DNA of 64,000 nt, taken from contig CM000151.3 of NCBI GenBank assembly GCA_000004695.1, forward strand, positions 4,928,001 to 4,992,000. The letters run 5' to 3'. Source of the DNA: Dictyostelium discoideum (lineage: Eukaryota). Positions within the stretch are counted from its first letter, which is position 1. Every line of letters starts with the position of its first letter. The translations under genes were made by a program, and so were the position numbers. This document shows positions 17,318-61,863 of the stretch, piece after piece. Below the pieces are notes generated by a model. The model was not told where the DNA came from and did no database searches. It was given only the letters and a program-made list of their open reading frames with translations.

Positions 17318-20300
17318 ATGATGGAGTTGTCAACTGAAGACAATTCACAAACCAATAATAATAATAATAATAATAGTAATAATAGTAATACAAATAGTGA
17401 ACAAATTAAAGAACCAAATTGTAATAGTAATAATAGTAATAATAATAATAGTAATAATTTAAATAATTCAATAATATCGGACTTATCAACACCAGGAAAT
17501 AATATAATACAAGTTAAAATGGATGAAGAAAGTCAATCATCACAATCGATATCAGAATCATCAACGCCTACAATCATAGGAAATCAAAAGGATGAAGTAG
17601 TAACATCATCAAATAATTCATCACCATTAACTCAATCACAACAAACCAATACATTATCAGAATCAACTGAATTAAAAGTATCATCGCAAACAGCAACTAA
17701 AGAAACATCAGACTCTTCACCACCAACAGGTGAGGGTTCATCATTAACACCTCAAAATTCTGTTTCACCATTAACAGGATCAAGAGATATCGATTCACAA
17801 CATGATGGTGGTGGTAGTATTCATTCATCATCACCACCACCACCACTATCAACAACATCAAGTGAACCAAGTGAATCATCTTTACCACAAACTTTAACTT
17901 CATCAATTCCATCAATTCCAATACCAAATAATACTTCAACAACAACAACAACCACTACCACTACTACTACTAATACAACTACAACACCATTATCATCATC
18001 AACAACAATAACAAAACCACCATCATTATCATCAAGTGTTGAAAAACAATATCCACCACCAATTACAGGTAATCCAAGATTAAATTTATTAAATAATGGT
18101 GGTAGTGGTAATAGATCAACCAATGGATTGGACGTACATAAATATAGAACATTTATAGGATCTAAATTACAATCAACCAATGTAAAAGATGATCCTTTAG
18201 CAGAGGAAATGATCTATTTACCAAAGGATGATCTATCATTTTCAAAAGTTGAAGCATATCATCGTATCATTTCAACAGCTATGAGTTTACCACCTGGTAT
18301 ACCACCCGAATATTTCAATCCTTTTGAATTTAATCAACATGTTAAAACTTCAATCGATACCTTTAATGCACCACGTAAAACTATAACTAGAAATTATGAA
18401 AAATTTAAAAAGGATCAAGATCGTTTAATAATTATAAATAATTCACCATCAATATCACAACAACAACAACTTCAAAATGGTTTAATATCAGCAAATACTA
18501 GTTTTTATATAGGTAGTACAAGTGCTACTAGTATCAATGGTGGTAATAGTAATAATAATAGTTTTTTAGATTATTTTAATAATAGTAAAGAAAATAGTAG
18601 TGGTTTGAGTAATACAAATTTAAATTCAAATAGTATTTTAAATGATAAATATGAATGTGATATAGTTTATGAAAAGGAGTTATTAAATTCAAAATTAGCG
18701 ACAGTACAATCATCAACTGGTAGAAACAGTGGTGGAGTTATAGATGAGAAAGATTTACCACCAAGTTGGGCAGAGTCATCAGATGAATTACATTTTGAAT
18801 ATCAACAACCCATTACATCCGATATAGAGTTGGAGAATCAGGAACAAAGAAAACGTCAACGTCATCATGGTTTCTTTAAATATTATAAACCAGACTATAA
18901 TTGGGGATCAGGTACAGAGGTATCACTTTGTAATAGAACCATAGTTGATCCATGGAAAAAATCAAATTCAATCAGTGTATTATTGGAATTCAAAGGTTTA
19001 GTATTTCTATTGGGTGAACATGAACCATTCTATTGTCAAATGTTTTTATATGATTCTGTTAATAAATGTAGATTAAGTGAATCATTTCATTTTGATTTCA
19101 ATCCTGAAAGATTGAAATTATTAGTTGATAATGGTAATATTAAATCAAATTCAATTACAAATGATAAAAATAATAGCAATCCAGAATCTGATTCATCATC
19201 ATCCACATCTTCATCATCATCAGTGGCAGCAGCAAATACAAATCCTTCAACACCAGATTATTTAACACAATGTAGACATGTTTTAGTATCATTACCAGTG
19301 AAACAACAAAAGGATATTTGGATAGTTGTTAAAATTAATAAAGTTATGCAAGGTGATCCAGATGTAATCAAAGAACCTTATACCAAATTGGATGAGAAAG
19401 AAATTGGTAAATCTAAAGTAAAAGTTTCAACAACCATTCAAGATATTGGTAAAAGATTGGGTAGATTTCATCAACCATTCTCAATTACTACTTTACCATT
19501 AACAAATGAAGGTGGTTTTGTTAAACCTGGTACTGTGGAATGTGATCTCTATAAACAAGTTCCAAAGGATTTATCTGATCTTCAAGATTTAATCACTGAT
19601 ATTAAAGATCCTTCAAAGAAAAAGAAATTAAAAACTTTATTAGGTGCTTTCACTTGTGTAGTTCATAAAACTGAAGGTGAATTACCACCATATGGTCAAC
19701 GTTTAGATCCATCTTATAATTTTATTAAATCTTCTGAACCTTATAATAATGCAAATCAAATTGATTCTAATAAATCATATAATAATAATAATCAAAATAA
19801 TCAAAATAATAATAATAATAGTAATAGTACAAATACTTCATCAGATAATGTACCACAACAATCACCAGCAATTTTAATTACACCAGATTGTACACCACCA
19901 TTTAAATCAATTAATCCACAAGTTGCATTATCAATGTCATCATTAAATTCACTTACAACAACAACAACAACACCACCAACAAATAATAATAATACTACAA
20001 CAACAACAAATACAACAACAAATACAACAAATGAAAATAATCAACAACCAGATTTATCACCAACATTATCACCAAGAAGACAATTACAACATTCATCATC
20101 ATATTCAAATAGTATTAAACGTGTTAATACATTAGCAGCACTTAATCCAGTTATACCAGCAATTAGAGAGATTCAATGTTTTTCAAAGTATCCAGAATTA
20201 ATACCACATTATCAACAATTTAATAATCTTTATATTTATCCAGAAACTGTTTGTTTAAATAAAGCTCATGGTAGAAATATATCAATAAAGATTGAAATAC

Positions 20301-35084: not shown

Positions 35085-35559
35085 TAATATTTTTTTTTAT
35101 TGAATGAATAATTATAAATAAACACAAAATATATTAAAAAATAATTATTTTTAAAAAAAAAAAAAATAGAAAAAAAAAAAAAAGATAAAATAAAAAAATA
35201 AAATAAAAAAATAAAAAAAAAAAAAAAAAAAAAAAAAAAGATAAATGAAAATGTGTGTTGTGTGTGGGAATATTTTTTAAAATATCTCACACAATGAAAC
35301 TAAACTCTTTTAATATAAACCCTAAAAAAAAAACACCACTAATTTTGGTTGTATCTGGAAATAACTTTTTTTTTTTAAAACCACAATTTTTAGTGGTCCT
35401 TTTTCTTTAATTTGTCAATATCTAATTTTTAATCCAATCCCAATTTTAAATATTTTCAAATGTAAACTACTTATTTTAAATTTTTATTTTAATTTTAATT
35501 TTTTTTTGTTTTAAACTAAAAAGCTAAACCATTTTTTTTATTTATTTTATTTTAATTTT

Positions 35560-39413: not shown

Positions 39414-39850
39414 AAAAAAAAAAAAAAAAACATATTTGTTTTTTTAAGATTCGATTTAAAAAAAAAAAAAAAAAAACCACAAGAAATAACTTTATGTTTT
39501 AAATTTATTTGTTATTAATGAAAGGGTTTCAGTTTTAAAATTTTTAAGATGTTTGAAGGTGGAAAGCCTTTGAAACACTGCATTAGACTGATCCATTTTT
39601 TTTTTTTTTTGGGATTAGTCTGTTAGATTCTCAAAATCCTTGAGTATGTTTGGAGGCAAATGGCCAAAAAAAAAAAAAATGTAGAAAAAAGTGGAAAAAA
39701 TATATTTTACGAAGTTCGAATTTTTTTTTTTTTTTTTTTTGATATAAATAAACTATTGTAGTATACAATTAGTATGTTATTTTTATTTATTTATTTTAGG
39801 TTTTTTAGTTTTTGTGAATTTAAAATAGTATGTTATTTTAGATTAGGTAA

Positions 39851-42800
39851 TTAATAATTAATTGGTGGTGTAATTGTTGGAATTGGTTCATTTGTGTTTA
39901 TGCTCCATTCTTTTTTAAATTTTTTGATGGTTTCGGACCATTGGGTTTCTTTTTGAGTTTTTGTGAGGTTGTTTTTAATTGAGAATTGGTTAAAGTTTGA
40001 TAACCTTCTTGAATATTCCAATCTTATTAGCTTGTGCCATTTTGATTTTAATATATCATAATCTAGTGTTGTGTTGTTTATTTGGTTGTTCCAATTGTCA
40101 ATTGATTGAGTTATATTGATGTCAAATAATGATTTGCATAACCATATCCATATTTGGTGAATAACTAATGAGATTATGTTCCAATATGCATGTGTTCTGA
40201 CTAGATCAAGATTTGTGTTTATATAATTCCAGTTGAACCTGTATTTTTTATATTGTGCGTTTTCTGCAAAATGAAAATTAATATTGATAGTTGGATCTGG
40301 TTTAAATGCTTTGTTGTTTGTTTGTGGTTTATAAATGAGTGTGTATAATTTTGTTGTTTGGTTTTTTGTTAGTGACCAGTTTTTGTTTCCATTGCAATTT
40401 TTATATATAAAATATTTTAATTTGTCGTGGTTAATGAAGTTGATTGTGTGCTGACAATTGAAAAACAAATGACCATAGGGATCATTATTCATTTCATTGT
40501 TGCAAATGGGGCAAACTTTGTTGTGTAGATGATTAATCGGAAGACATCTAGCATGGAATCTTTGCATTGTATCTCGGCCTTTTGGATCTTTTAATTTTTG
40601 AATTTTGACAAAAAGTTGGTCGTATGTGTATTTCCATAATAGTTGTATTGATTGTTGGTGCGAAGTAAGAAGTAGATCTGAATATTTCTTGCCAATATAG
40701 TCTTTTGATTTGCATTGGTGATTGTTTAGTATTGTCGAGTAGATTTCTTTGAGTGTTGGTGGTAGTGAAATATTATTTGTGTTTAATGTTTGAGAGGGTT
40801 GGTTTTTTGTTAATATTGGTTGTAGGATTTGAACTTTATCTTTTAGATGTCCAATTTGAGTTGCATAGTTTTCCCATTCTTTTTTTATTTTTATAAGGTA
40901 TGGAGAAGAGATTGATTTGTTGATGATTTGATCCATCCAACTTATCATGTATATTGAATTGTTTGCAGATTTATGCATTTGTAAAAATCTGTTGTATATC
41001 CAAATCTTTTGAGCAACTTGTCGTAATTGGATATTCCACATACCCCAACCTCCTTCTTTTAATGGTTTTAATGATCTATCATAACACATCAAAGGTATTT
41101 TTGCACGTGAATGGATGGTTGATGTGTTGTTTTCAATGGAATTGGTATCGAGAGTTGGTGATTCAGAATTTGCGGGAGAATTCATAAACCATGAGATTAA
41201 TTTATTAATTTGAATTTCTTCATCTTTTTTGGTTATTGGAATTCTTTTTGATTGTGGAATGTTGTTTATTATGTGTTTATCAGTGATTTTGTGGGGGTTG
41301 ATTTCTATTATTGCACTTTTGTCAAAATTTAAAGATGATGATGTTGAAGCGCAGAAATTATCGAAATGTTTGATTGATTGTTGTTGTTGTTCGTAGTTGA
41401 TGTTGTATGTTGTAGAGTCGTCTGCAAATTGGGTAAATTTGATTTTAATTTGTGGATTGGGTGAAATTGGTAATCCAATTATTGAATTGTCTGCATTTAT
41501 TGTTCTTGCTAATATTTCAATTACAATTACAAATAAAGTGGCTGAGATTGGGTCACCTTGTTTTACACCTCTTTTAATATCGAATTTTCTGGTCGTTTTA
41601 CCATTAATTGAAATTTTTGCTTGTGAGTCAGATAATAGCTTGTGGATTAAATTTATTAATTTTATTGGTATACCAATATGAATTAATGTTCTTTTAATGC
41701 TATCGTGAGAGATAGAATCAAATGCTTTAAAGAAGTCAAATAGTGTGATGATACCAGGGAGGTTTTTAGATTTGAGGTAATTGATTAATTCATTGATGTT
41801 GATGATGTTGTCTATGATGAATCTGTGGGGTACGAAACCAGTTTGGTTGTTGTTGATGATGAAAGGAAGTATTCTCAGAAGACGTGCATTGATTACTTTT
41901 GAGAGGATCTTGTAATCAGTGTTTAGAAGTGTAATGGGACGACGATTTGATATGAGTAAGGGGTTGCCTTTCTTGTATATTGTGTGTATAAGACCTTCGG
42001 TGAATTCTGTTGTGATGTGGTGAGGATTTTCTAGTATATCGTTGAATAATGTAGTGAGAATTGGTTTAACTTGGTTTAAATGATTAATGTAGAATGCGTT
42101 TGTAACGCCATCTGGACCGGGTGATTTGTTGGGGTTACAGGTTTTAATTGCAGCTTCAACTTCATCTTGTATAAATGGTGAGTCTAAACCATTCCAATAT
42201 TCATTTTTTATGATGGGCCATGTGTTTAGCATGAGCTGGTGAGTAATTGGACAACATATTTGTAAGCTATATAGATTTGTGTAGAATTCAACAAACGCAT
42301 TTTCAATTTGGTCGGGGTCGGATGTAATTATGTTACCATATTGGATTGATTCAATTTTTGCATCTTTTGATCTTTTGTTTAGTATTGCTGATAGATACTT
42401 GCTAGGTATTTCTCCATTTATATGTTTTTTTAATATGTTTGTGTGGTTTTGATGTAATTTGTTTTTGTTACATATAATATTGTATTCAGCGATGCATTGT
42501 TCTTCAAGATGTTTGAATTTTGCTGCTTTTTCTAATAGTATTTGTTTTGCACGTTGAGTTTGTTTGTCTTTGTTATATTGATAGTTTTTTAGAGTTTTAA
42601 TAATTTTTGATTTTACTTTTGACCAGTTTGTAAATTGATTGATTGATGTGTTATTGTGATTAGTTATTAAATGATTGATAATATTGATTGCTTCATGGTC
42701 ATTTGCAGTACCAGGTGATAATATCCATCTTTTCTTATGTTTATTTATTTGAAAAGGTGAAGAAATTGTTGTTGATATTGGATTATGATCTGATAATGAA

Positions 42801-43477
42801 GATGGAATTTGGTGGACTTGTGTATATATATTTTCAGGGTCTATTCTATTGTATTGAGTATATATTCTATCTAATCTGTTGCCATGTGTATGAGTTGGAG
42901 TGTTTTTAAATTCACCTTGATCAATTAGATGGTGTTGGTATGTGTAGGATTGGATAATATCGTCTAATAGTGAATTGTCGTTGTGGATACAGTTGAAATC
43001 TCCTGCGATAATAGATACATGTTGGGATTGGTTTGGTATTGGGTTTGTTGAGTGGTTGTGGAGAAGTGTTTGTAGTGAAGTTGCATATGAATTCTTTTTG
43101 ATGGTATTATTTGATGCTGGTGCGTAAATTCCAAGAATACCAATTGGTAATTGATTTGGAAATATAACGTCTGCTAAAATAGCTCTACCATCAATTGTTG
43201 ATATGTGTTTGAGTTTGAGTGTGTTTGGGTTATGGTTAATGATGATTACACCATTTCCTCGTTTGGTGACAGAGATGATGTGATCGGGAAAATCATGTTT
43301 AAGTTGTAATGGTGATAAATTGAGTTCAGTGAGTATTGAGATTGTTGGACGAGGTGGAAGTTTTGATATAAGTAGTTGTAGTGTGTCAACAGCTTTTTGG
43401 TAGGAATTGTGTTGATTGTTTGGGTTTTCAGTGAATCCTCTACAATTCCATGTTATAAAGTTGATTTTTGAGCTCAT
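39851..43477 (-). CDS. TRE ORF2: apurinic-like endonuclease plus reverse transcriptase, 1208 aa.
   Basis: The N-terminal EN domain (ITWNCRGF..., ...AGDFNCIHND...) and the RT motifs (ITLFDFFKAFDSISHD, FADDSTTY) are present, followed by a C-terminal Cys-rich region. Its ATG overlaps the stop of the preceding ORF as ATGA. Confidence 0.85.
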   Translation of the reverse strand: MSSKINFITWNCRGFTENPNNQHNSYQKAVDTLQLLISKLPPRPTISILTELNLSPLQLKHDFPDHIISVTKRGNGVIIINHNPNTLKLKHISTIDGRAILADVIFPNQLPIGILGIYAPASNNTIKKNSYATSLQTLLHNHSTNPIPNQSQHVSIIAGDFNCIHNDNSLLDDIIQSYTYQHHLIDQGEFKNTPTHTHGNRLDRIYTQYNRIDPENIYTQVHQIPSSLSDHNPISTTISSPFQINKHKKRWILSPGTANDHEAINIINHLITNHNNTSINQFTNWSKVKSKIIKTLKNYQYNKDKQTQRAKQILLEKAAKFKHLEEQCIAEYNIICNKNKLHQNHTNILKKHINGEIPSKYLSAILNKRSKDAKIESIQYGNIITSDPDQIENAFVEFYTNLYSLQICCPITHQLMLNTWPIIKNEYWNGLDSPFIQDEVEAAIKTCNPNKSPGPDGVTNAFYINHLNQVKPILTTLFNDILENPHHITTEFTEGLIHTIYKKGNPLLISNRRPITLLNTDYKILSKVINARLLRILPFIINNNQTGFVPHRFIIDNIININELINYLKSKNLPGIITLFDFFKAFDSISHDSIKRTLIHIGIPIKLINLIHKLLSDSQAKISINGKTTRKFDIKRGVKQGDPISATLFVIVIEILARTINADNSIIGLPISPNPQIKIKFTQFADDSTTYNINYEQQQQSIKHFDNFCASTSSSLNFDKSAIIEINPHKITDKHIINNIPQSKRIPITKKDEEIQINKLISWFMNSPANSESPTLDTNSIENNTSTIHSRAKIPLMCYDRSLKPLKEGGWGMWNIQLRQVAQKIWIYNRFLQMHKSANNSIYMISWMDQIINKSISSPYLIKIKKEWENYATQIGHLKDKVQILQPILTKNQPSQTLNTNNISLPPTLKEIYSTILNNHQCKSKDYIGKKYSDLLLTSHQQSIQLLWKYTYDQLFVKIQKLKDPKGRDTMQRFHARCLPINHLHNKVCPICNNEMNNDPYGHLFFNCQHTINFINHDKLKYFIYKNCNGNKNWSLTKNQTTKLYTLIYKPQTNNKAFKPDPTININFHFAENAQYKKYRFNWNYINTNLDLVRTHAYWNIISLVIHQIWIWLCKSLFDINITQSIDNWNNQINNTTLDYDILKSKWHKLIRLEYSRRLSNFNQFSIKNNLTKTQKETQWSETIKKFKKEWSINTNEPIPTITPPINY

Positions 43478-44013
43478 ACCTTACTAGGTTTGGCAGCACC
43501 AGTATTGACTGGTTGTGTAGTCAGGGCATTGCTGCTTCTTCTTGTATTTATTGGATTTGGAGTTGGTGCACTTGGTTTGTTTGGTTGAGATTGTAGAGGT
43601 TTTTGTGGTACAATTGTTGGATCGGTTGGATTGCTCATTGATAATGAGTTTTTCCCGTTATTATTATTTGAAGAATCACTTTTGTGTGAAATTTCATTAT
43701 TGTTTTGGGATTGATTGTTAATATCAAGTGATTCATTTAGTATAGCTTTTGAACCACTATTTTGAAGTGAGTTTTTATTGCGATTGGAATTTGCAATTTC
43801 GTTGATTGGTGGGGTGTTAATGTTGTTTTTTGGTGGTTGATTGTTTTTGTTCATGTTTGGGTTTGTGATGGCATTTTTTATAGTTGTTGCCATATCTGCA
43901 TTTTTTGCATGTTGAATTTTGTGTTTAGTGACACTACGTGTTGCAGCTTTGATATATCTTGTGATACCAGATGGTTGTTCGATCTTTTGATCAACAATGT
44001 TGTGTGTGATCAA
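43474..44013 (-). CDS. TRE middle ORF, 179 aa. A basic, Asn/Pro-rich protein.
   Basis: It overlaps the ORF1 end by 23 nt and the ORF2 start by 4 nt. The same arrangement is conserved in the fragment copies at 54054..54374 and 54366..54698. Confidence 0.6.
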   Translation of the reverse strand: MITHNIVDQKIEQPSGITRYIKAATRSVTKHKIQHAKNADMATTIKNAITNPNMNKNNQPPKNNINTPPINEIANSNRNKNSLQNSGSKAILNESLDINNQSQNNNEISHKSDSSNNNNGKNSLSMSNPTDPTIVPQKPLQSQPNKPSAPTPNPINTRRSSNALTTQPVNTGAAKPSKV

Positions 44014-44680
44014 TTAGATGATATGTTATAATGTAGCTTTTAAACGCAACAGCATATGAGTATGTGACAGTAAATGATTCAATTGATGTACAACTGGTGA
44101 ATTTAGTGAGGTTGTTTGTAATTGCATCGTTTGCATGTTTGGGTGAGTACGTTTTAATGAATGTTTTAATGATTGCATAATCATTTGATGATATATCGAA
44201 TCTATAGTTGAGTTTGTCGATATTTAGTGCAAGTTGGTTTTGAAGGTTGATTATTGAAGTTAATTTATCAACGTTGCAATTTACGAAGGCAGTTGCACCA
44301 ATTATTTTGAATGCTGATGGCGACAGTATATCTTCGAAGAGTTTGTGAATGTTTTTGTGAATTTGTTGAATTCTTGTGTCATCTTTTGAGGTTAATTCTT
44401 CACGGATGTGTGGTTGATTAAAGTAACACTTAATGTTGATGGTGTTATTGTTTTTTTCTAAGAAAGAGAGTGGTCTTGTGATTGATGGAGGTGCAATGAT
44501 ATCTAATTGATTATCAAGTCCTTTGTTTAGTGAGAGTTGGTTTGTTGGGGTTTGTTTTTTAGGTGTGTCGATTTTTACACTTTTGTTTTTTGTTGTTGAG
44601 GTTGTGGAGGTATTATTTGTATTTGTTGTGTTGTTATCTGTATGATTTAACTGTAATTCAGTTGAGTGATCATCAGCCAT
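43991..44680 (-). CDS. TRE ORF1, 229 aa.
   Basis: The start MADDHSTELQLNH... is repeated, near-identical, at 53780..54076 (plus strand) and in the inverted copy. Confidence 0.7.
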   Translation of the reverse strand: MADDHSTELQLNHTDNNTTNTNNTSTTSTTKNKSVKIDTPKKQTPTNQLSLNKGLDNQLDIIAPPSITRPLSFLEKNNNTINIKCYFNQPHIREELTSKDDTRIQQIHKNIHKLFEDILSPSAFKIIGATAFVNCNVDKLTSIINLQNQLALNIDKLNYRFDISSNDYAIIKTFIKTYSPKHANDAITNNLTKFTSCTSIESFTVTYSYAVAFKSYIITYHLIDHTQHC

Positions 44681-44877
44681 TGTTGAAAAGTATATAGGAC
44701 GATAGCCCTTGCTTTAATGAGCAAAAATAGGGTAAAATTAAGAGGAATGAATGTGGCGGTGAAGATATAACAGTGATTTATTTATTATATGTATAAATTC
44801 TCGTTTATTTCTTTGTTTTTTCGGTTTTTTGTTTTTTCAATCGAAGTTCGAATTTAGTGAAATTTCTAAAAAAGAAA

Positions 44878-44950
44878 TGTCAAGTCAGAGGATCGAACTC
44901 TGGACCTTAGGATTATGAGACCTACGCTCTACCAACTGAGCCAACCTGAC
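44878..44950 (-). tRNA. tRNA-Met (anticodon CAU), 73 nt.
   Basis: The reverse complement GTCAGGTTGGCTCAGTTGGTAGAGCGTAGGTCTCATAATCCTAAGGTCCAGAGTTCGATCCTCTGACTTGACA folds as a cloverleaf. The acceptor is GTCAGGT/ACTTGAC with one G-U pair. The anticodon loop is CUCAUAA, and GTTCGATCC forms the T-arm. Confidence 0.85.
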
Positions 44951-44956
44951 ATGTTG

Positions 44957-45348
44957 ATATTTTTTGTAATAAAGTTACTCTATAAAATTAATAGATATTA
45001 AATATGCATATTACATTACTAATTATAGTTGACACACATTTAAATAATATAATAATAATAATAATAATAATAATACTGTCAACTCATTATGAATAATATA
45101 AATACTAAAGAATAATTTTATAAACAATATTGAATATTATAAATATAAATTAATATTAAATAAAGATAACAAAGTATTATTCAATTATATAATTATTAAT
45201 TATATATATTTATAAAGCTAACAAGCTTTATTACATTTGGCGACATCGTCTTTCAAAAAAAAAAAAAAAAAAAAATATACTATAAATATAAAGTTATCAA
45301 ATTATTCAATCAATTAAAATTTTACATTAGATTAAATTTAATTTAATA

Positions 45349-45437
<89 letters not shown>

Positions 45438-48400
45438 TTATTATGAAAACCGTATTTTTTTCGGGTAATGGAAAGGGTTAATCATTCTTTAATTTCAACC
45501 ACTAACTCTTATTAATTCATGGCGAGGAAATATCGAAAGCTGATATTATTAGAAAACTAAGAAACAATGCATTGGAATATGCCGCAACATTGGATACAGA
45601 CTTAACAGCAATGGAGATAATTGAAGATCTTAAAGATGCTTTTGATATTGGTGATAGTGATGATTTATCAGATTTAACAAAGTTAGGAGAATATAAATAC
45701 AATACATTAGATATATTAATTGGTAAATTTCTTTCAAAATGTTCAGCAGTTGATATTTCAGAAAAGTTTAAAATACAATTGTTTTATTCAGCTGTTGGTA
45801 TTGAATTGGGTATTGAAATTACAAAATGTGCACCAAAATCATTAAAAAGAGCAATAGACATTGCAAAGTCTTGTGAAGATGGTTCAATTCGTATGAGAGG
45901 TAGATCAATGTATACTGGTCAATTGGTTGCAAAAACATTACAAGAATTTGGAACTCAAAAGTATCTTGGTTCTGGATCTGGTTATACAACATCACCACAG
46001 TACGTTACATCTCAAACTGAACAATCTACTGAAACTGAAGTATTAGCAACTCCAATTTATAAAAATCAAACATATTCACCACCACCATCACCTTATAAAG
46101 CACCACAAAATCAAGTAAATTCAATCACAAAATTTTGTAAATATTGCAAAAAGAAAGGTCATGTAATTCAAGAGTGTTGGTCTAAAGATAAAAAGAATAA
46201 TTATAATGAGAATAAACAATCATATAATAATCATAGCACTAATGCAATTACAATGGTTAATGATAAAACGATTAATTCTATTGGAACTGATAGTATGAAT
46301 GCAGCATTATTAATAAATGATAAGAATGTTAGAGGTTTAGTTGATACTGGTTCTTCTCTTACCATCATTTGGGAAAGTATTGCTAAAAAATTAAATTTAA
46401 AAGTTGAAGGTAAATCATTTTCAGTTAATTCAGCATCAAATAATGAAATTAAGATAGTTGGTAGTTGTGATACCATAATTAAATTAGGTAAAGCATCCGC
46501 AAAAGTTAATGTTAATATTGTTAAAGATAATGATACTTCAATCGATTGCATTTTTGGTGTAGATACACTTATTGGATTGAAATTAATAATTGATTGCAAG
46601 GAAATGATCATTAAGAATCTTGAATTTAATGTTGGTACAAGATTAATCACCAGAGAAACCAAACCAATTGTTTGCAAAATTGATCTAAATATATTAGAAA
46701 AAGTATCAAAACCAATGGCTGAGTTATTAATCAAAAATGAAGAGATTTTTGAAACCAAATTGTCAAAACCAGGATCATTAATAGATGTTGAACATTCAAT
46801 TAAATTAACTGATGAAAATGTTTCTGTTTATACTCCACCATACAAAACTAGTCCAGCTGATAAAGAATTCATTGAAGAATACATTAAAGATGCATTAGAT
46901 AAAGGTATAATCGAGAAATCAGATTCATCACAATACGGTTCTCCAATAGTCTTATCCAGAAAGAATGATAAAATTAGATTTTGTGTTAATTATAAAAAAC
47001 TAAATGACCTCACAATTAAAGATAGATATCCACTTCCATTAATTTCTGATTGTTGGTATTATCTCAAAGATGCAAAAGTTTTCTCAAAAATTGATCTTAC
47101 TTCTGGTTATTATCAAATCAAAATGAAAGAAGAGGACAAGGATAAAACAACCTTTGTCTCTCATATGGGTCAATTTAGATATGTTGTAATGCCATTTGGA
47201 TTATGTAATGCACCAGCAACTTTTCAAAGATACATGAATGAATTATTAAAGGATGAATTAAGAAAAAGTAATATTGGGTTTATTGACGATTGTATAATTT
47301 ATAGCAAGAATAATGAATATCATATTGAACATGTCAAACTATTATTCGAAAAATTCAAAGAAAAAGGTGCAAAGTTACAAATAACTAAATGTGAGTTTGA
47401 AAAAGAAGAGATCAAGTTTTTGGGATATATCGTTTCAAAGAATGGTATTACTTATGATAGTTCAAAGTTTAATGAATTATTAAAAACACCACCTCCATCA
47501 AATCAAAAAGAATTAATGAAATTACTCGGTACTGTCAATTACTTTAGAACATTCATTAAAAATTTCACTCATTTAACTTCATCATTTTATCCACTATTAA
47601 AGAAGGGTGTTAATTTCAAATGGACTGATGAATTGGAAAATGATCGTGTAAAATTATTTACTACATTAGCACAAACTAATCTTTTAAGTTTTCCACAAGA
47701 TACAGATGATAATGTTATTGAAACTGATGCTTCAATTATTGGTATTGGTGGTGTAATGATTCAAAATGGTAAACCAGTTTCTTATTATTCAAGAACATTA
47801 AACAACGCTGAAAAGAATTATTCTGTTACTGAAAGAGAATGTTTGGCAATCATTGAATCAATTAAATATTTTAAATCCTATATCAATGGTAGAAAAGTAA
47901 AAATCATCACTGATCATCAACCTTTGAAATATCTCTTAACTGGTAAATTTACTGATCGTATTACAAGATGGACTGTATTACTTCAAGAGTATAATTACGA
48001 AATTATATATAGACCTGGTAAAGAAAACTTTTTAGCTGATGCATTATCAAGATGTCCAGATAGAGATCAACAGCCAATTGATTGTGATATTCCAGAAAAG
48101 ATATTTACAATTACTCACTATCCAGTAGCTTCACCATCAACTACAATTTTACCAAGAGTCTTACCATCAAGATCAAATCAAACATCTAATGTTTCACCAG
48201 CTACAACAATTCAACCACCAAATTCATCAAGTTCAAATCAATCATCAAATATCCCACCAACAACAAACCAATCATCAAATATTACAAATCAACCAATAAA
48301 TACTTCATCAATGAATTTAAATCAATCATTATCAAATCAAGCAACAACCGCTAGATTATTGAATAGTGTACCTATCTCAATCAACAATGATAATATTAAT

Positions 48401-50003
48401 ACAACAACTCCACAATTTACACAAGAGTCAATAAGAAAAGAGTTGGAAAAAGAAAATTATTATAGAGCAATGTATAAATATCTTGAAGAAACAAGACTTC
48501 CAGACAATGCACAAGCAGCAAGAAGAATTTTGTTCGAGTCTGAATTTTATTCAATGATTAATGGATTTCTTTGTCACGGTTTAAAACATACTTTATCAAG
48601 TAAGAAATCTCATTTTAAACATCTTCAAATTGTAGTTCCAAAAACTATGACTAAATGGATAATGGAAATATTTCATGATTCGCCACTTACTGGAGGACAT
48701 TTTGGATTATTAAAAACTGTCGCAAAAATCAAAGAAAGATTCTATTGGATTGGTATGATTAAGGATATAAAAGAATTTATCGATAAATGTACAACTTGTT
48801 TACAAATTAAAAGAAAGTATGGTCCAAAAGAAGGTTTACTCATTCCAATTGAGATTGAACCTGAACCATTTAATACAATTGGTATTGATTTTATTGGTCC
48901 AATTACAAAAGATAATGCTCAAGTTTATTTGTTGGTTGTTATGGATTATTTTACTAAATGGCCAGAAGTTTTCTTTACCCTTGATATGGAAGGGGAGACT
49001 GTAGCTCAATTATTGTTGTATGAAATCTATACTAGATATGGGGTTCCAAAGAAGTTGGTTTCTGATCGTGGTAAGAATTTTTTAAGTAATGTAGTCTCTG
49101 GTGTTAATAAATTATTCGGTGTTCACAAATTAACAACTACTGCTTATCACCCACAATGTGATGGTCAAACTGAAAATTTCAATAATACATTAATTAAGAT
49201 GCTCAAAGCTTTTATTGGTAATGAATTGTATGGCAATTGGGGTGAATTATTAAGATGTGTTTTATACTCATACAGAATTACACCACATGTTTCAACTGGT
49301 TTTTCACCCTTTTTCTTACTTTTTAATCGTCAACCAACTTTACCATTAGATACAACTTTAAATGTAAATTTTTATTCAAATTCACTAAGATTAGATTTCG
49401 CTGATAATTATGCACAATCCGTAAATAATAATCTTAAACGTGCCTTTTGGTTTACAAAGAATAATCTCGATAAAGCTCAAGAATTACAAAAAACAAATTA
49501 TGATAAAGGTCGTCGTCCAACAAATATTCAAACAGGTGATTTTGTTTATTTACATACACCATATTCACAAACTTCTATTGGTCCAAAGAAATTCTATAAA
49601 CCTTGGAGAGGTCCTTTTAAAGTTCAAGAAAAAGTTAGCGATGTTACATTCAAATTAGATATGGGTAATCTTAGAGATCATAAAGTAGTCAATATTGAAA
49701 GATTGAAAAAAATTTTCAACTAAAAGGGGGGGATATGTAATAAAGTTACTCTATAAAATTAATAGATATTAAATATGCATATTACATTACTAATTATAGT
49801 TGACACACATTTAAATAATATAATAATAATAATAATAATAATACTGTCAACTCATTATGAATAATATAAATACTAAAGAATAATTTTATAAACAATATTG
49901 AATATTATAAATATAAATTAATATTAAATAAAGATAACAAAGTATTATTCAATTATATAATTATTAATTATATATATTTATAAAGCTAACAAGCTTTATT
50001 ACA
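44957..50003 (+). mobile_element. Full-length Ty3/gypsy-type LTR retrotransposon (DGLT-A-like) inserted 6 bp upstream of the tRNA-Met gene. The two 268-bp LTRs are identical (44957..45224 and 49736..50003) and start TGTAATAAAG and end CTTTATTACA. A polypurine tract AAAAGGGGGGGG lies at 49723-49734.
   Basis: Direct comparison of the two LTR copies shows they are identical in my reading. The internal region is a single 1383-aa gag-pro-pol ORF. The putative primer-binding site TTGGCGACATCG lies directly 3' of the 5' LTR. Confidence 0.85.
45572..49723 (+). CDS. Gag-Pol polyprotein of the LTR element. It contains a CCHC zinc knuckle, an aspartic protease (LVDTGSS), a reverse transcriptase (YVVMPFGLCNAPATFQRYMN, FIDDCIIYS), RNase H and an integrase (HHCC...DxxE).
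   Basis: Canonical motifs are read directly from the ORF. The ORF is uninterrupted. Confidence 0.85.
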   Translation: MEYAATLDTDLTAMEIIEDLKDAFDIGDSDDLSDLTKLGEYKYNTLDILIGKFLSKCSAVDISEKFKIQLFYSAVGIELGIEITKCAPKSLKRAIDIAKSCEDGSIRMRGRSMYTGQLVAKTLQEFGTQKYLGSGSGYTTSPQYVTSQTEQSTETEVLATPIYKNQTYSPPPSPYKAPQNQVNSITKFCKYCKKKGHVIQECWSKDKKNNYNENKQSYNNHSTNAITMVNDKTINSIGTDSMNAALLINDKNVRGLVDTGSSLTIIWESIAKKLNLKVEGKSFSVNSASNNEIKIVGSCDTIIKLGKASAKVNVNIVKDNDTSIDCIFGVDTLIGLKLIIDCKEMIIKNLEFNVGTRLITRETKPIVCKIDLNILEKVSKPMAELLIKNEEIFETKLSKPGSLIDVEHSIKLTDENVSVYTPPYKTSPADKEFIEEYIKDALDKGIIEKSDSSQYGSPIVLSRKNDKIRFCVNYKKLNDLTIKDRYPLPLISDCWYYLKDAKVFSKIDLTSGYYQIKMKEEDKDKTTFVSHMGQFRYVVMPFGLCNAPATFQRYMNELLKDELRKSNIGFIDDCIIYSKNNEYHIEHVKLLFEKFKEKGAKLQITKCEFEKEEIKFLGYIVSKNGITYDSSKFNELLKTPPPSNQKELMKLLGTVNYFRTFIKNFTHLTSSFYPLLKKGVNFKWTDELENDRVKLFTTLAQTNLLSFPQDTDDNVIETDASIIGIGGVMIQNGKPVSYYSRTLNNAEKNYSVTERECLAIIESIKYFKSYINGRKVKIITDHQPLKYLLTGKFTDRITRWTVLLQEYNYEIIYRPGKENFLADALSRCPDRDQQPIDCDIPEKIFTITHYPVASPSTTILPRVLPSRSNQTSNVSPATTIQPPNSSSSNQSSNIPPTTNQSSNITNQPINTSSMNLNQSLSNQATTARLLNSVPISINNDNINTTTPQFTQESIRKELEKENYYRAMYKYLEETRLPDNAQAARRILFESEFYSMINGFLCHGLKHTLSSKKSHFKHLQIVVPKTMTKWIMEIFHDSPLTGGHFGLLKTVAKIKERFYWIGMIKDIKEFIDKCTTCLQIKRKYGPKEGLLIPIEIEPEPFNTIGIDFIGPITKDNAQVYLLVVMDYFTKWPEVFFTLDMEGETVAQLLLYEIYTRYGVPKKLVSDRGKNFLSNVVSGVNKLFGVHKLTTTAYHPQCDGQTENFNNTLIKMLKAFIGNELYGNWGELLRCVLYSYRITPHVSTGFSPFFLLFNRQPTLPLDTTLNVNFYSNSLRLDFADNYAQSVNNNLKRAFWFTKNNLDKAQELQKTNYDKGRRPTNIQTGDFVYLHTPYSQTSIGPKKFYKPWRGPFKVQEKVSDVTFKLDMGNLRDHKVVNIERLKKIFN

Positions 50004-50457
50004 TTTTGAAATATTTTTGAAATATTTTTGCACCATTACGTTTTATTTCCATTCCAAAAAAAAAAAACGTTTTATTTTTCATTGGGAAGAAACTAATAAT
50101 TGTGTTATCCAATTCAAAAAAGTATTTTTCATTTAAATTATTTTTTTTATATAATTCTACAGTATTTCATGAATGTTCATTTTTATTCTTTATTATTTTT
50201 TTTTTTTTAATTTTTAATTTTTTTTTTTTTTTTTTTTGAAAATTAAAATCAAAACCAAGATATTTTTTTTTTTTTCTTCCCTTATTTTTTTTTTTTTATT
50301 TTTATAACTATTCTTTAATAGAATTCTTTTTTTAAAAAAAAAGAACACCATGGAAGCTTTTTTGTTTTTTTTTTAAAAATGGATATAAATTATTATTTTT
50401 TTTTTTTAAAAAAATAAAACAAGATAATATCCAAAAATAAATAAAACAGAAAAAAAA

Positions 50458-50973
50458 ATGCCTCCAAAGATTAAAATAATTACAGGTCCAATCGGTTCTG
50501 GAAAAACAACAATTTTAAATAGAATCAAAGAGTCATATGAAAGAAAAGAAATCTTTATTGGTCAAAAGGTTGGATTTTTTGGTGAACCTACTGATTCCAC
50601 TGTAGCTAATGCTCTCCTAAAGGATATGTACTCAAAGTTTCCATTTGCTAATGATCAGTTTGAAACTTTACAAAAATACCTAATGGCTGTGGAAGCTAAT
50701 GATTTATGTAATGCTTTGTCATCGTCAGAGTATGATATTGTTTACTTTGATACATCGGTTTTGTATGGAGTTGTATTTTTACAAACTGCTAATGATTTGA
50801 AAATCATAAACAATCAAACCTATTCAAATTGTCTAACGTTTTACTATCAAATGATTTCAAATATTAATTTCGAAAATGCTGAAGTAACCAATTTAAAAGT
50901 CATACCACACATAGGTGTATGGAGCAAATTAACCAAAGAGGTAGAGCCTTTGAAGTCGGTAGTTTATCTATAG
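50458..50973 (+). CDS. Deoxynucleoside-kinase-like P-loop NTPase, 171 aa. It appears truncated. The downstream frame-shifted remnants (to ~51250) suggest a pseudogene or a mis-joined gene.
   Basis: The P-loop GPIGSGKTT is present. There are dNK-like motifs FFGEPTDS (EPV-like) and FDTSVLYGVVF (ERS/DRY-like). The ORF stops before the expected arginine-rich lid. Coding-like text continues in another frame (DYVSKLTDKIRSHCVSQVYQDLKNQ). Confidence 0.4.
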   Translation: MPPKIKIITGPIGSGKTTILNRIKESYERKEIFIGQKVGFFGEPTDSTVANALLKDMYSKFPFANDQFETLQKYLMAVEANDLCNALSSSEYDIVYFDTSVLYGVVFLQTANDLKIINNQTYSNCLTFYYQMISNINFENAEVTNLKVIPHIGVWSKLTKEVEPLKSVVYL

Positions 50974-53254: not shown

Positions 53255-53328
53255 GCCTTAGTAGCTCAGTTGGTACGAGCGTGAGACTGAAGATCTTAAG
53301 GTCGCTGGTTCGATCCCGGCCTGAGGCA
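53255..53328 (+). tRNA. tRNA-Phe (anticodon GAA), 74 nt.
   Basis: GCCTTAGTAGCTCAGTTGGTACGAGCGTGAGACTGAAGATCTTAAGGTCGCTGGTTCGATCCCGGCCTGAGGCA. The anticodon loop is CUGAAGA. It is highly similar to canonical eukaryotic tRNA-Phe. Confidence 0.85.
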
Positions 53329-53334
53329 AATATT

Positions 53335-54370
53335 TTTTGATGGTTTTCCAATGGCTGATGATCACTCCGCCGAAAAGACACAGTCTGATCACAGGTAAAA
53401 AAAAAAAAAAAAAAAGTTAAATCATACAGATAACAACACAACCAATACAAATAATACCTCCACAACCTCAACAACAAAAAACGAAAGTGCAAAAATCGAC
53501 ACACCTAAAAAACAAACCCTAACAAACCAACTCTCACTAAACAAAGGACTTGATAATCAATTAGATATCATTGCACCTCCATCAATCACAAGACCACTCT
53601 CCTTCTTAGAAAAAAACAATAACACCATCAACATTAAGTGTTACTTTAATCAACCACACATCCATGAAGAATTAACCTCTAAAGATGACACAAGAATCCA
53701 ACAAATTCACAAAAATATTCACAAACTCTTCGAAGATATACTGTCGCCATCAGCATTTAAAATAATTGGTGCAACAGCCTTGGTAAATTGCAACGTTGAT
53801 AAATTAACTTCAATAATCAACCTTCAAAACCAACTTGCACTAAATATAGACAAACTCAACTATAGATTCGATATATCATCAAATGATTATGCAACCATTA
53901 AAACATTCATTAAAACGTACTCACCCAAACATGCAAACGATGCAATTATAAACAACCTCACTAAATTCACCAGTTGTACATCAATTGAATCATTTACTGT
54001 CACATACTCATATGCTGTTGCGTTTAAAAGCTACATTATAACATATCATCTAATTGATCACACACAACATTGTTGATCAAAAGATCGAACAACCATCTGG
54101 TATCACAAGATATATCAAAGCTGCAACACGTAGTGTCACTAAACACAAAATTCAACATGCAAAAAATGCAGATATGGCAACAACTATAAAAAATGCTCTC
54201 ACAAACCCAAATATTAACAAAAACTATCAACCACCAAAAAACAACATTAACACCCCACCAATCAACGAAATTGCAAATTCCAATCGCAATAATAACCCAC
54301 TTCAAAATAGTGGTTCAAAAGCTACACTAAATGAATCACTTAATAATAACGGGAAAAACTCATTATCAAT
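53335..54370 (+). mobile_element. 5'-truncated or rearranged TRE fragment (degenerate ORF1 start, ORF1 and the beginning of the middle ORF). It begins ~22 bp downstream of tRNA-Phe, in the same orientation as the tRNA.
   Basis: ORF 53780..54076 is the ORF1 C-terminus and 54054..54374 is the middle-ORF N-terminus; both are near-identical to 43474..44680. The ORF1 N-terminus is disrupted by an A17 insertion at ~53400. Confidence 0.7.
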
Positions 54371-55500
54371 GTGAGATTTCATTATTGTTTTGGGATTGAT
54401 TGTTATTATTAAGTGATTCATTTAGTGTAGCTTTTGAACAACTATTTGGAAGTGGGTTATTATTGTGATTGGAATTTGCAATTTCGTTGATTGGTGGGGT
54501 GTTAATGTTGTTTTTTGGTGGTTGGTTGTTTTTGTTAATATTTGGGTTTGTGAGAGCATTTTTTATAGTTGTTGCCATATCTGCATTTTTTGCACGTTGA
54601 GTTTTGTGTTTAGTGACACTACGTGTTGCAGCTTTGATATATCTTGTGATACCAGATGGTTGTTCGATCTTTTGATCAACAATGTTGTGTGTGATCAATT
54701 AGATGATATGTTATAATGTAGCTTTTAAACGCAACAGCATATGAGTATGTGACAGTAAATGATTCAATTGATGTACAGCTGGTGAATTTGGTGAGGTTGT
54801 TTGTAATTGCATCGTTTGCATGTTTGGGTGAGTACGTTTGAATGAATGTTTTAATGATTGCATAATCATTTGATGATATTTCGAATCTATAGTTGAGTTT
54901 GTCGATATTTAGTGCAAGTTGGTTTTGAAGGTTGATTATTGAAGTTAATTTATCAACATTGCAGTTTACGAAGGCAGTTGCACCAATTATTTTAAATGCT
55001 GATGGCGACAGTGTATCTTCGAAGAGTTTGTGAATGTTTTTGTGAATTTGTTGAATTCTTGTGTCATCTTTAGAGGTTAATTCTTCACGGATGTGTGGTT
55101 GATTAAAGTAACACTTAATGTTGATGGTGTTATTGTTTTTTTCTAAGAAGGAGAGTGGTCTTGTGATTGATGGAGGTGCAATGATATCTAATTAATTATC
55201 AAGTCCTTTGTTTAGTGAGAATTGGTTTGTTGGGGTTTGTTTTTTAGGTGTGTCGATTTTTGCACTTTTGTTTTTTGTTGTTGAGGTTGTGGAGGTATTA
55301 TTTGTATTGGTTGTGTCGTTATCTGTATGATTTAATTGTAATTCAGTTGAGTGATCATCAGCCATTGTTGAAAGGTATATAGGACGATAGCCCTTGCTTT
55401 ACTGAGCAAAAATAGGGCAAAATTAAGATGAATGAATGTGGTGGTAAAGATATAACAGTGATTTATTTATTATATGTATAAATTCTTGTTTATTTCTTTG
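54371..55500 (-). mobile_element. Inverted TRE 5' fragment (5' UTR, ORF1 and middle-ORF N-terminus) joined head-to-tail-inverted to the preceding fragment. Together they form a ~2.1 kb palindrome-like structure with its junction at ~54370.
   Basis: ORF 54366..54698 on the minus strand is equivalent to 54054..54374 on the plus strand. The 5' UTR at 55361-55500 matches 44700-44830. Confidence 0.7.
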
Positions 55501-55789
55501 TTTCGTTTTTTTTCATACTTTGATAATTTTTATAATTTTGATAATTTTGATATTTTTGATATTTTTGATATTTTTGATAGTTTGTTAAATCCAATGAGGA
55601 ATATAAAGTCAAAAATTAATTATAAAAAAAAAAAAAAACTGGTTTAGAAAATTCACATACATTTTAACAAAGAATAGTATATTGATTAATCCATCAAAGA
55701 TTTAGACAAATAGTGTACACTTTGTTAAATTGGAAAAAATTGTATTGTTAAAAACCAAAAAAGTTGGTTTTTTTTATTTATTTATTTAT

Positions 55790-61080: not shown

Positions 61081-61790
61081 TCTTTTAAAAATTATTTGTT
61101 GTGTTTTGAAGAAGGAAAAAAAAAAAAAATAAAAAAATAAAAAAAAAAAAGTAAAAAACAAAAAAAAAAGCGAAAAAATGAAAAATAAAAAAATTAAATT
61201 TAGAAATAAAATTATTAATTATTATTATTATTATTATTTTATTTTAACCTTAAATAATTAAATAAATAATAATAATTAATATAAAACAATTATACAAAGT
61301 TTTAATTTATTATTTTTATTTTAATTTTTAATATAAAGTCAATTATTAATATTTTTTTTATTTTGTATGATTAATTTTTTTTTTGTTTTTTTTTTTTTTA
61401 TATTGATCCATTAAAGGAAATAAACAGTAATAAATAGATTTTTTTATGGATTTTAATTTAAAAAGTTAAGTTTTTTTTTTTTTTTCTTTTTTTTTTTTTT
61501 TTAAGGAACCAATATTGTTTCAGTTTAGGTTGTCTAAATAGAATATTTGGTTAGTTAAAAGAAGATAAAATTACTACTATTTTGGGAATTATTTAAATAA
61601 ATTGGTGGAAAGAGACTAGGTTTGGGATCACTGATTTCGGAATGCAATAAACTTTGCATGTTAAGTTTCTTAAATTAATAATTTGAGGAAAAAATTTGGA
61701 TCTTTGAAGTGATGATCGATTATTAAATTTGGTTACATTTGAAGTAACAAAGCGTCGAACTTGTGATCTATAAATTACGTGAGAAAATTA

Positions 61791-61863
61791 CGCCCAAAGG
61801 GGGGCTCGAACCCCCGACCACAAGGTTAAAAGCCTTGCGCTCTACCGACTGAGCTATCTGGGC
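61791..61863 (-). tRNA. tRNA-Lys (anticodon UUU), 73 nt.
   Basis: The reverse complement GCCCAGATAGCTCAGTCGGTAGAGCGCAAGGCTTTTAACCTTGTGGTCGGGGGTTCGAGCCCCCCTTTGGGCG. The anticodon loop is CUUUUAA. T-arm GGGGG TTCGAGC CCCCC. Confidence 0.8.

Follow-up and report, generated by a model that had tools for sequence, protein, structure and literature searches.

What brings two unrelated retrotransposons to one and the same tRNA gene, to which families do they belong, and can either of them still move? These questions are raised by a 64,000-nucleotide stretch of the Dictyostelium discoideum genome (assembly GCA_000004695.1, contig CM000151.3, positions 4,928,001 to 4,992,000 of the forward strand; hereafter the window, in whose coordinates all positions are given), which has a G+C content of 23%. 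Here an elongator tRNA-Met gene lies between a long terminal repeat (LTR) element of the Ty3/gypsy type and a non-LTR element. We conclude with high confidence that two known retrotransposons that target tRNA genes struck this gene independently of each other: DGLT-A upstream and a TRE3-type element downstream. The bracketing of the gene by an LTR element upstream and a TRE-type element downstream, both from tRNA-targeting families, had been proposed from the sequence alone (the original prediction), and in this respect the prediction is borne out.

The nest is shared by two assemblies: the window and D. discoideum GCA_054883475.1, where it lies on the 4.89-Mb contig JBTAPE010000033.1, the same contig that gave an exact match to a host protein encoded in the window. 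A 6-kb segment of that assembly (L001) is collinear with the window, with 0 mismatches and three indels. A 24.3-kb segment of JBTAPE010000033.1 (L004) is collinear with window positions 35397–59727 at 99.46% identity and holds the same tRNA-Met gene, both elements and the same tRNA-Phe gene. We treat L004, which was reached through the DGLT-A cluster member P0164, as the GCA_054883475.1 allele of this locus; a further segment, L002, comes from the same contig, at about 0.18 Mb. As the same nest occurs in the window and in L004, the arrangement is genuinely genomic. A chance origin is excluded by the LTR, repeated over 268 bp without a substitution, together with a flanking 12-mer found exactly twice in 64 kb.

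The tRNA gene itself is unharmed. Its position and strand in the Rfam search match those originally predicted, and ARAGORN places tRNA-Met(CAT) at 44877–44951 on the minus strand. The gene encodes an elongator tRNA-Met that has a G1:C72 pair and the T-loop GTTCGATCC. We saw no damage to the gene from either insertion: the A box and the B box, whose state had been proposed as a check, are both intact, and the T-run terminator TTTCTTTTTT directly past the 3' end is also kept. The full B-box pattern has three occurrences in 64 kb, one per tRNA gene.

The upstream element has two long direct repeats, spaced by about 4.77 kb, which bracket a plus-strand frame encoding protease, reverse transcriptase (RT), RNase H and integrase (IN). 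A Pfam scan of this open reading frame (ORF) recovered, in a single frame and in this order, Asp_protease, RVT_1, RT_RNaseH, Integrase_H2C2, rve and Integrase_p58_C, and gave no match to a chromodomain (PF00385) after the integrase. The gag motif CX2CX4HX4C is present as CKYCKKKGHVIQEC. Testing the ORF against DGLT-A, as had been suggested, gave a clear result: overall it shares 98% identity with the D. discoideum polyprotein AAG37039.1/Q9GQ51 (1437 aa), rising to 100% between about residue 230 and the C-terminus, pol included. The published DGLT-A polyprotein has 1437 aa (PMC6101501), and the DGLT-A consensus is 5054 bp long with LTRs of 265 bp (PMC5006619, Table 1). Judged by its sequence, the LTR element is DGLT-A. 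The hallmarks of integrase-type insertion are seen in its LTRs, primer-binding site (PBS) and polypurine tract.

The two LTRs begin with TG and end with CA, and they differ by no substitution and by a single AAT unit, an indel of 3 bp. Each is base-for-base identical to its L004 counterpart; since the indel also occurs in this independent assembly, it is real. The LTRs had been described as identical and 268 bp long, whereas their lengths are 271 and 268 bp; the recency proposed for the insertion is nevertheless upheld, as near-identical LTRs argue for it. Similarly, the gypsy type and the right end of the element agree with the original prediction, which had placed the element at 44957–50003 and so set its start 8 bp too far to the left. 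This shift also corrects the distance to the tRNA gene, which had been called unusually close at 6 bp and is in fact 14 bp. None of the three tRNA genes in the window has a 3' end complementary to the DGLT-A PBS, which agrees with the published failure to find a complementary host tRNA genome-wide (PMC5006619).

Published DGLT-A insertions lie upstream of tRNA genes at 13–33 bp (PMC5006619, PMC6101501, PMC5911963); the average is 15 bp, and 18 of 20 cases fall at 13–18 bp (PMC5006619, PMC6101501). The 14-bp spacing lies within this range and is typical of DGLT-A. The element is directed away from the tRNA-Met gene; insertions of DGLT-A occur in either orientation (PMC5911963). It is flanked by TTTT at 44961–44964 and at 50004–50007 (TTTTT versus TTTTG, 4/5 identical, if 5 bp are considered), which is probably its 4–5 bp target-site duplication (TSD). 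According to published work, DGLT-A is tethered via contacts of its RNase H and the N-terminal domain of its integrase to Tfc4, a subunit of TFIIIC (PMC6101501), and such contacts would have held the pre-integration complex at the transcribed tRNA gene. DGLT-A landed inside an 11-bp tandem repeat: the unit TTTTGAAATAT occurs 2.5 times on the right (50004–50030) and the related TTGATATTTTT on the left (44953–44964). The presence of repeat units on both sides implies that the region upstream of the tRNA gene had about three units before the insertion.

The downstream element has the same transcriptional orientation as the tRNA-Met gene, with its 5' end facing the tRNA 3' end. Read along the minus strand, the tRNA gene is followed by the T-run, ...cactaa ATTCGAACTTCG and the element start ATTGAAAAAACAAAAAACCG..., and the element closes with ...TATATC A20 ATTCGAACTTCG. 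The 12-bp duplicate that flanks it is the 12-mer with exactly two occurrences in the window, and it is duplicated in L004 too. The element begins at the same 5' position as an independent copy in L002, which indicates that it is not 5'-truncated. Its ORF2 carries, in addition to the apurinic/apyrimidinic endonuclease (APE) and RT domains, a CCHC zinc-finger motif (CPICNNEMNNDPYGHLFFNC, residues 989–1008), and the encoded protein is 98% identical to DDB_G0291958 of strain AX4. The stop codon of ORF1 overlaps the start codon of ORF2 (ATGA) in both alleles, and in L004, with its continuous ORF1, ORF2 is read in the -1 frame with respect to ORF1, the configuration published for TRE3-A (ORF2 in the -1 frame with an ATGA overlap; PMC5911963). 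The poly(A) tail and the long TSD are the hallmarks of target-primed insertion. Taken together, ORF1, an ORF2 with APE, RT and zinc finger in the -1 frame, the poly(A) tail and the TSD make up the non-LTR architecture of TRE3 (PMC5006619, PMC5911963).

The insertion behaviour of relatives points to the same family. Two further copies, 96–99% identical to the element of the nest, also lie downstream of tRNA genes and co-oriented with them, so that the TRE3 position is shared by three independent copies, at tRNA-Met, tRNA-Phe and tRNA-Gln (the last in L002). As to the subfamily, TRE3-A to TRE3-D, the closest named proteins are generic AX4 'hypothetical protein' entries, and a literature search for sequences or primers of TRE3-A, -B or -C yielded nothing usable. 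Exact-protein look-ups of the window ORF2 and of three AX4 proteins (P0146, P0166 and P0101) gave no match. We also tried assignment by cluster abundance or by length, and rejected it as not decisive (5120 bp, or about 5323 bp with the deletions restored, against 5229 and 5279 bp).

The relative at tRNA-Phe (53255–53328, plus strand) starts at about 53350, about 21 bp past the gene. The region 53350–55512 contains two 3'-truncated fragments of the TRE3 5' end, which meet tail to tail and form an inverted repeat with arms of about 1 kb: a plus-strand copy at about 53350–54350 and a minus-strand copy at 54370–55512, both 96–97% identical to the TRE3 element of the nest. They are found in both assemblies (L004 positions 18006–20094). 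Non-LTR elements normally lose their 5' part, which makes pieces with nothing but the 5' end odd and suggests that a palindromic rearrangement took place. The relative in L002 (9842–12652) lies 64 bp downstream of tRNA-Gln, is 99% identical to the copy in the nest, and has a large internal deletion, with 1.77 kb of the 5' part joined to 1.05 kb of the 3' part.

The distance from the tRNA-Met 3' end is 35 bp to the TRE3 5' end and 23 bp to the duplicated target; published ranges for TRE3 are 14–228, 34–188 and 14–305 bp (PMC5006619, Table 1), and the distance here falls inside them. The regions that TRE3 targets lie downstream of B boxes, internal or external (PMC5911963), and external B boxes have been reported for two-thirds of the D. 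discoideum tRNA genes, at about 41 bp downstream (PMC3159450). The TTCGAA core of the target matches the B-box consensus GTTCRAnYC (PMC3159450) at 7/9 positions on the tRNA sense strand and at 8/9 on the antisense strand, and on the basis of this match we infer that the duplicated target may be an external B box. The element was inserted by target-primed reverse transcription 23–35 bp downstream from the tRNA-Met gene and in its orientation, leaving a poly(A) tail and a TSD of 12–14 bp that overlaps the B-box-like TTCGAA; guidance by TFIIIC bound to the B box or to an external B box is the presumed route. Another B-box-like motif, AAGTTCGACGC, lies on the tRNA sense strand about 30 bp downstream (61730–61760) of the tRNA-Lys gene (61791–61863, minus strand); this is probably an external B box without an inserted element.

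Table 1. Positions of the tRNA-Met gene, the two flanking retrotransposons and their parts in the window.
Feature	Position	Strand	Remarks
TRE3 TSD, left copy, CGAAGTTCGAAT	39710–39721		14 nt if the first TT of the poly-T is counted
TRE3-type non-LTR retrotransposon, 5120 bp	39722–44841	-	Bounded by TSD and poly(A) tail
TRE3 poly(A) tail	39722–39741	-	T20 on the plus strand
TRE3 ORF2, 1208 aa	39851–43477	-	Pfam Exo_endo_phos (APE) 8–231, RT 502–724
TRE3 ORF1 region	43474–44680	-	ATG at 44680
TRE3 TSD, right copy, CGAAGTTCGAAT	44842–44853		TTCGAA core, B-box-like
Elongator tRNA-Met(CAT), 73 nt	44878–44950	-	Rfam RF00005, full model, 64.8 bits
tRNA-Met B box, GTCCAGAGTTCGATCC	44890–44905		Fits published consensus
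tRNA-Met A box, TGGCTCAGTTGG	44932–44943		Fits published consensus
Spacer, 14 bp	44951–44964		From tRNA +1 (44950) to DGLT-A 5' LTR (44965)
DGLT-A element, Ty3/gypsy, 5039 bp	44965–50003	+	
DGLT-A 5' LTR, 271 bp	44965–45235	+	TGTAAT...TTACA, (AAT)11
DGLT-A PBS, TGGCGACATCGTCTTTC	45238–45254	+	2 bp past the 5' LTR; sequence and offset as in PMC5006619
DGLT-A gag-pol frame	45434–49723	+	gag, protease, RT, RNase H, IN
Divergent 5' gag tract	45437–46090	+	Compared with GCA_054883475.1
DGLT-A polypurine tract, AAAAGGGGGGGA	49722–49733	+	2 bp before the 3' LTR
DGLT-A 3' LTR, 268 bp	49736–50003	+	(AAT)10

Both insertions are recent: the LTRs of DGLT-A are free of substitutions, and the TRE3 element has a perfect TSD and a perfect A20 tail. 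In the form found in the window, neither copy is autonomous. The downstream element had been predicted as a complete TRE at 39721–44830 with an intact endonuclease and RT; its bounds are shifted, ORF1 is frameshifted and ORF2 is incomplete. A (CA)n run near 44000 has lost 2 bp (CA), which breaks ORF1 into a 229-aa ORF (43991–44680) and an out-of-frame remainder (43474–44013); in the L004 allele and in the L002 copy this CA is present and ORF1 runs without a break for 402 aa. ORF2 is open and lacks 67 aa (KDQSERVLGYFF...LEEFT) after residue 750, just past the Pfam RT core, with the junction at about 41228. P0101, an AX4 protein at 98% identity, and P0103, a relative at 80% identity, both keep these residues, and the in-frame deletion is present in the L004 allele as well. 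In the window this copy has neither the continuous ORF1 nor the full-length ORF2 of an autonomous TRE3.

In DGLT-A two in-frame TAA triplets come soon after the canonical ATG (45434), at codon 16 (45479–45481) and at codon 24 (45503–45505). From this ATG the window frame reads MVIMKTVFFSGNGKG, a stop, SFFNFNH, a second stop and LLLIHGEE..., where the reference protein reads MSNNENIIFSGDGKGLSFRKFKHLLLLIHGEE.... The 1383-aa ORF that had been taken for an intact gag-pol is a mechanical call (45572–49723) that opens at a TTG, corresponding to Leu47 of the reference protein, and the two nonsense codons fall within the first 24 canonical codons upstream of it. The first in-frame ATG past the stops, at 45611, would give 1370 aa. 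The uninterrupted frame of 1437 codons from ATG, which marks an autonomous DGLT-A, is absent from the window and present in the L004 allele. The suggestion that the LTR element may still be active therefore fares differently in the two alleles: the interrupted frame of the window speaks against it, and the intact 1437-aa ORF of L004 lends it some support.

Several points weigh against parts of the reading given at the outset. The distance of 23–35 bp lies at the short end of the often-quoted TRE3 window of 40–150 bp (about 100 bp). The DGLT-A TSD is only TTTT in T-rich, low-complexity DNA and carries little evidential weight. Membership in TRE3 is argued from the architecture and the insertion behaviour of three copies, and the mechanisms of targeting, through Tfc4 contact and B-box guidance, come from the literature or from inference and not from this sequence. 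Finally, there are inactivating differences that are absent from the other assembly of the same locus; strain polymorphism or an error of assembly, as opposed to a property of the organism, may account for some of them.

The last point bears on the 5' part of gag. Over 24 kb the window and L004 differ by 69 mismatches, of which 61, along with 24 nt of indels, lie in 45437–46090, and 8 lie elsewhere. Two patches of different character can be distinguished in this tract. The first (45437–45504, 68 bp) is about 25% divergent from L004, is found only in the window and holds both stops; its compensating 1-nt shifts and A/T miscall-like changes resemble low-quality sequence. The second (45668–46090) is about 10% divergent from L004. 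Translated, it gives exactly the sequence of AX4 DDB_G0294236, and other genomic DGLT-A copies (P0163, P0165, P0168) carry this variant too, as do in part, through shared indels, elements of D. cf. discoideum. The match to the AX4 protein and to the other copies shows that the second patch is real.

For this difference we favour a real allelic origin through gene conversion between copies, with possible sequence error in 45437–45504. Ectopic conversion between DGLT-A copies after the insertion, as opposed to an error or an independent insertion of the element, accounts for flanks, LTRs and pol that are identical between the assemblies while 61 of the 69 mismatches are confined to the 650-bp gag tract, and for a second patch that carries the variant of P0163, P0165 and P0168 with indels common to the D. 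cf. discoideum elements. Nevertheless, the first patch matches no other copy seen, and a chimeric assembly of repeats would look the same; we put the chance of such conversion at a little short of even.

That the tRNA-Met locus holds a structurally complete and very young DGLT-A which is, or until very recently was, a live source element is a possibility that we consider less likely than not. In its stronger form, the copy would be really intact and competent for retrotransposition, and the stops and the 68-bp patch would be errors of assembly or consensus, or a private mutation of one laboratory lineage. The L004 allele is the best argument for this: its LTRs are byte-identical to those of the window, and its continuous ORF of 1437 aa is 2 residues away from the published consensus. 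In both alleles pol matches the consensus at 100% of its residues, no substitution separates the LTRs, and the patch with the stops has the look of low-quality sequence. DDB_G0294236 gives no independent confirmation of the stops, since this partial annotation starts at about 45563, 3 codons upstream of the mechanical ORF. Yet the stops are present in the sequence as given, and the second patch is confirmed by DDB_G0294236 and the other copies, so that at least most of the tract is a real allele difference. Moreover, three papers report no full-length intact DGLT-A in AX4 (PMC5006619, PMC5633606, PMC5911963), and a host tRNA complementary to the PBS is neither known (PMC5006619) nor found in the window. 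We consider the really intact copy unlikely.

The absence of a full-length DGLT-A from the AX4 records has a probable explanation in the assembly. DDB_G0294236 is located on an unplaced AX4 contig of 9512 bp that ends inside repeats, and the placement of the locus on this contig is probably why no full-length copy was recorded. The gene beside DGLT-A in the window (50458–50973) encodes a small P-loop protein resembling a deoxynucleoside kinase (dNK). Its AX4 counterpart, DDB_G0294238, shares the unplaced 9.5-kb contig with the partial DGLT-A ORF. The dNK-like family is multi-copy, with many paralogues, 80–97% identical, in D. discoideum and D. cf. discoideum. A candidate locus from strain ACTFIR (L003) was rejected, as it contains a paralogue of the dNK-like gene and is not orthologous.

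It is very improbable that the LTR element is Skipper and the non-LTR element TRE5 or an untargeted long interspersed nuclear element, placed beside the tRNA gene by coincidence: Skipper is also a Ty3/gypsy element, about 34% identical to DGLT-A (PMC5006619), and TRE5 ORF2 has the same domain order, but the LTR element lacks a chromodomain, carries the DGLT-A-specific PBS and not the polypyrimidine tract of Skipper, and encodes an ORF 98–100% identical to the DGLT-A polyprotein, while TRE5 occupies sites upstream of tRNA genes at about 50 bp and is oriented oppositely, its 5' end turned towards the tRNA 5' end (PMC3159450, PMC5911963), where the present element and two relatives are downstream and co-oriented, and the next most similar abundant RT clusters of D. 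discoideum are just 32–41% identical. Taken singly, Skipper is ruled out by the missing chromodomain, a single frame in place of two ORFs and a TGG-type PBS, and TRE5 by the location of the element downstream of the tRNA 3' end in the same orientation.

The reading as DGLT-A upstream and TRE3 downstream of tRNA-Met places the locus among arrangements already known in kind. It is a textbook case for D. discoideum, in which one or more TREs accompany 61% of the tRNA genes (PMC5006619), and AX4 has a partial annotation of this copy. Through the two insertions the intergenic region grew from about 0.9 kb to about 11 kb, leaving the adjoining protein-coding genes untouched. This is a 'safe haven' pattern, an intergenic expansion that spares the tRNA gene and its neighbours, and the nest illustrates how, in a compact haploid genome, unrelated retrotransposons converge on tRNA genes, which RNA polymerase III transcribes, as safe landing sites. 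The only mildly new point is the presence at the locus of a structurally full-length DGLT-A whose ORF is intact in the other assembly. The intact L004 allele is at odds with published accounts, in which the species lacks full-length copies, and a live source element, if truly present, would contradict the repeated statement that DGLT-A is extinct and without a full-length copy. Experiments on DGLT-A mobility have so far used the consensus sequence; the GCA_054883475.1 allele is a natural full-length candidate for them.

Compared with DGLT-A as described, the upstream element agrees in its one gag-pol ORF, gag motif, absence of a chromodomain, LTRs of about 265–271 bp, exact PBS, polypurine tract and 14-bp position. 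It departs from it in the window by the scrambled first 24 codons with their two stops and by gag residues of about 80–230, which follow the common genomic variant, 8 aa shorter than the variant of the published consensus; it also differs in being structurally full length (two LTRs, 5039 bp), while the literature has no full-length copy in AX4. The downstream element resembles TRE3, of which TRE3-A was formerly called Tdd-3, in its two ORFs with ATGA overlap, its APE, RT and CCHC domains, poly(A) tail, TSD of 12–14 bp, co-oriented downstream position and length of about 5.1–5.3 kb (5229 bp in TRE3-A, 5279 bp in TRE3-B). It is unlike TRE3 in that just 23–35 bp separate it from the tRNA 3' end, which is short for the published range, and in its 2-bp ORF1 frameshift (window only) and 67-aa ORF2 deletion (both assemblies). 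Ty3 of Saccharomyces cerevisiae is a known counterpart of DGLT-A, only about 26–35% identical to it in RT/RNase H and IN (PMC6101501). In Ty3, unlike in DGLT-A, a +1 frameshift links two separate ORFs, GAG3 and POL3, and Ty3 is tethered by contacts between IN and TFIIIB, in contrast to the RNase H–Tfc4 contacts of DGLT-A. That DGLT-A and Ty3 both target tRNA genes is a case of convergent evolution and not the property of one family.

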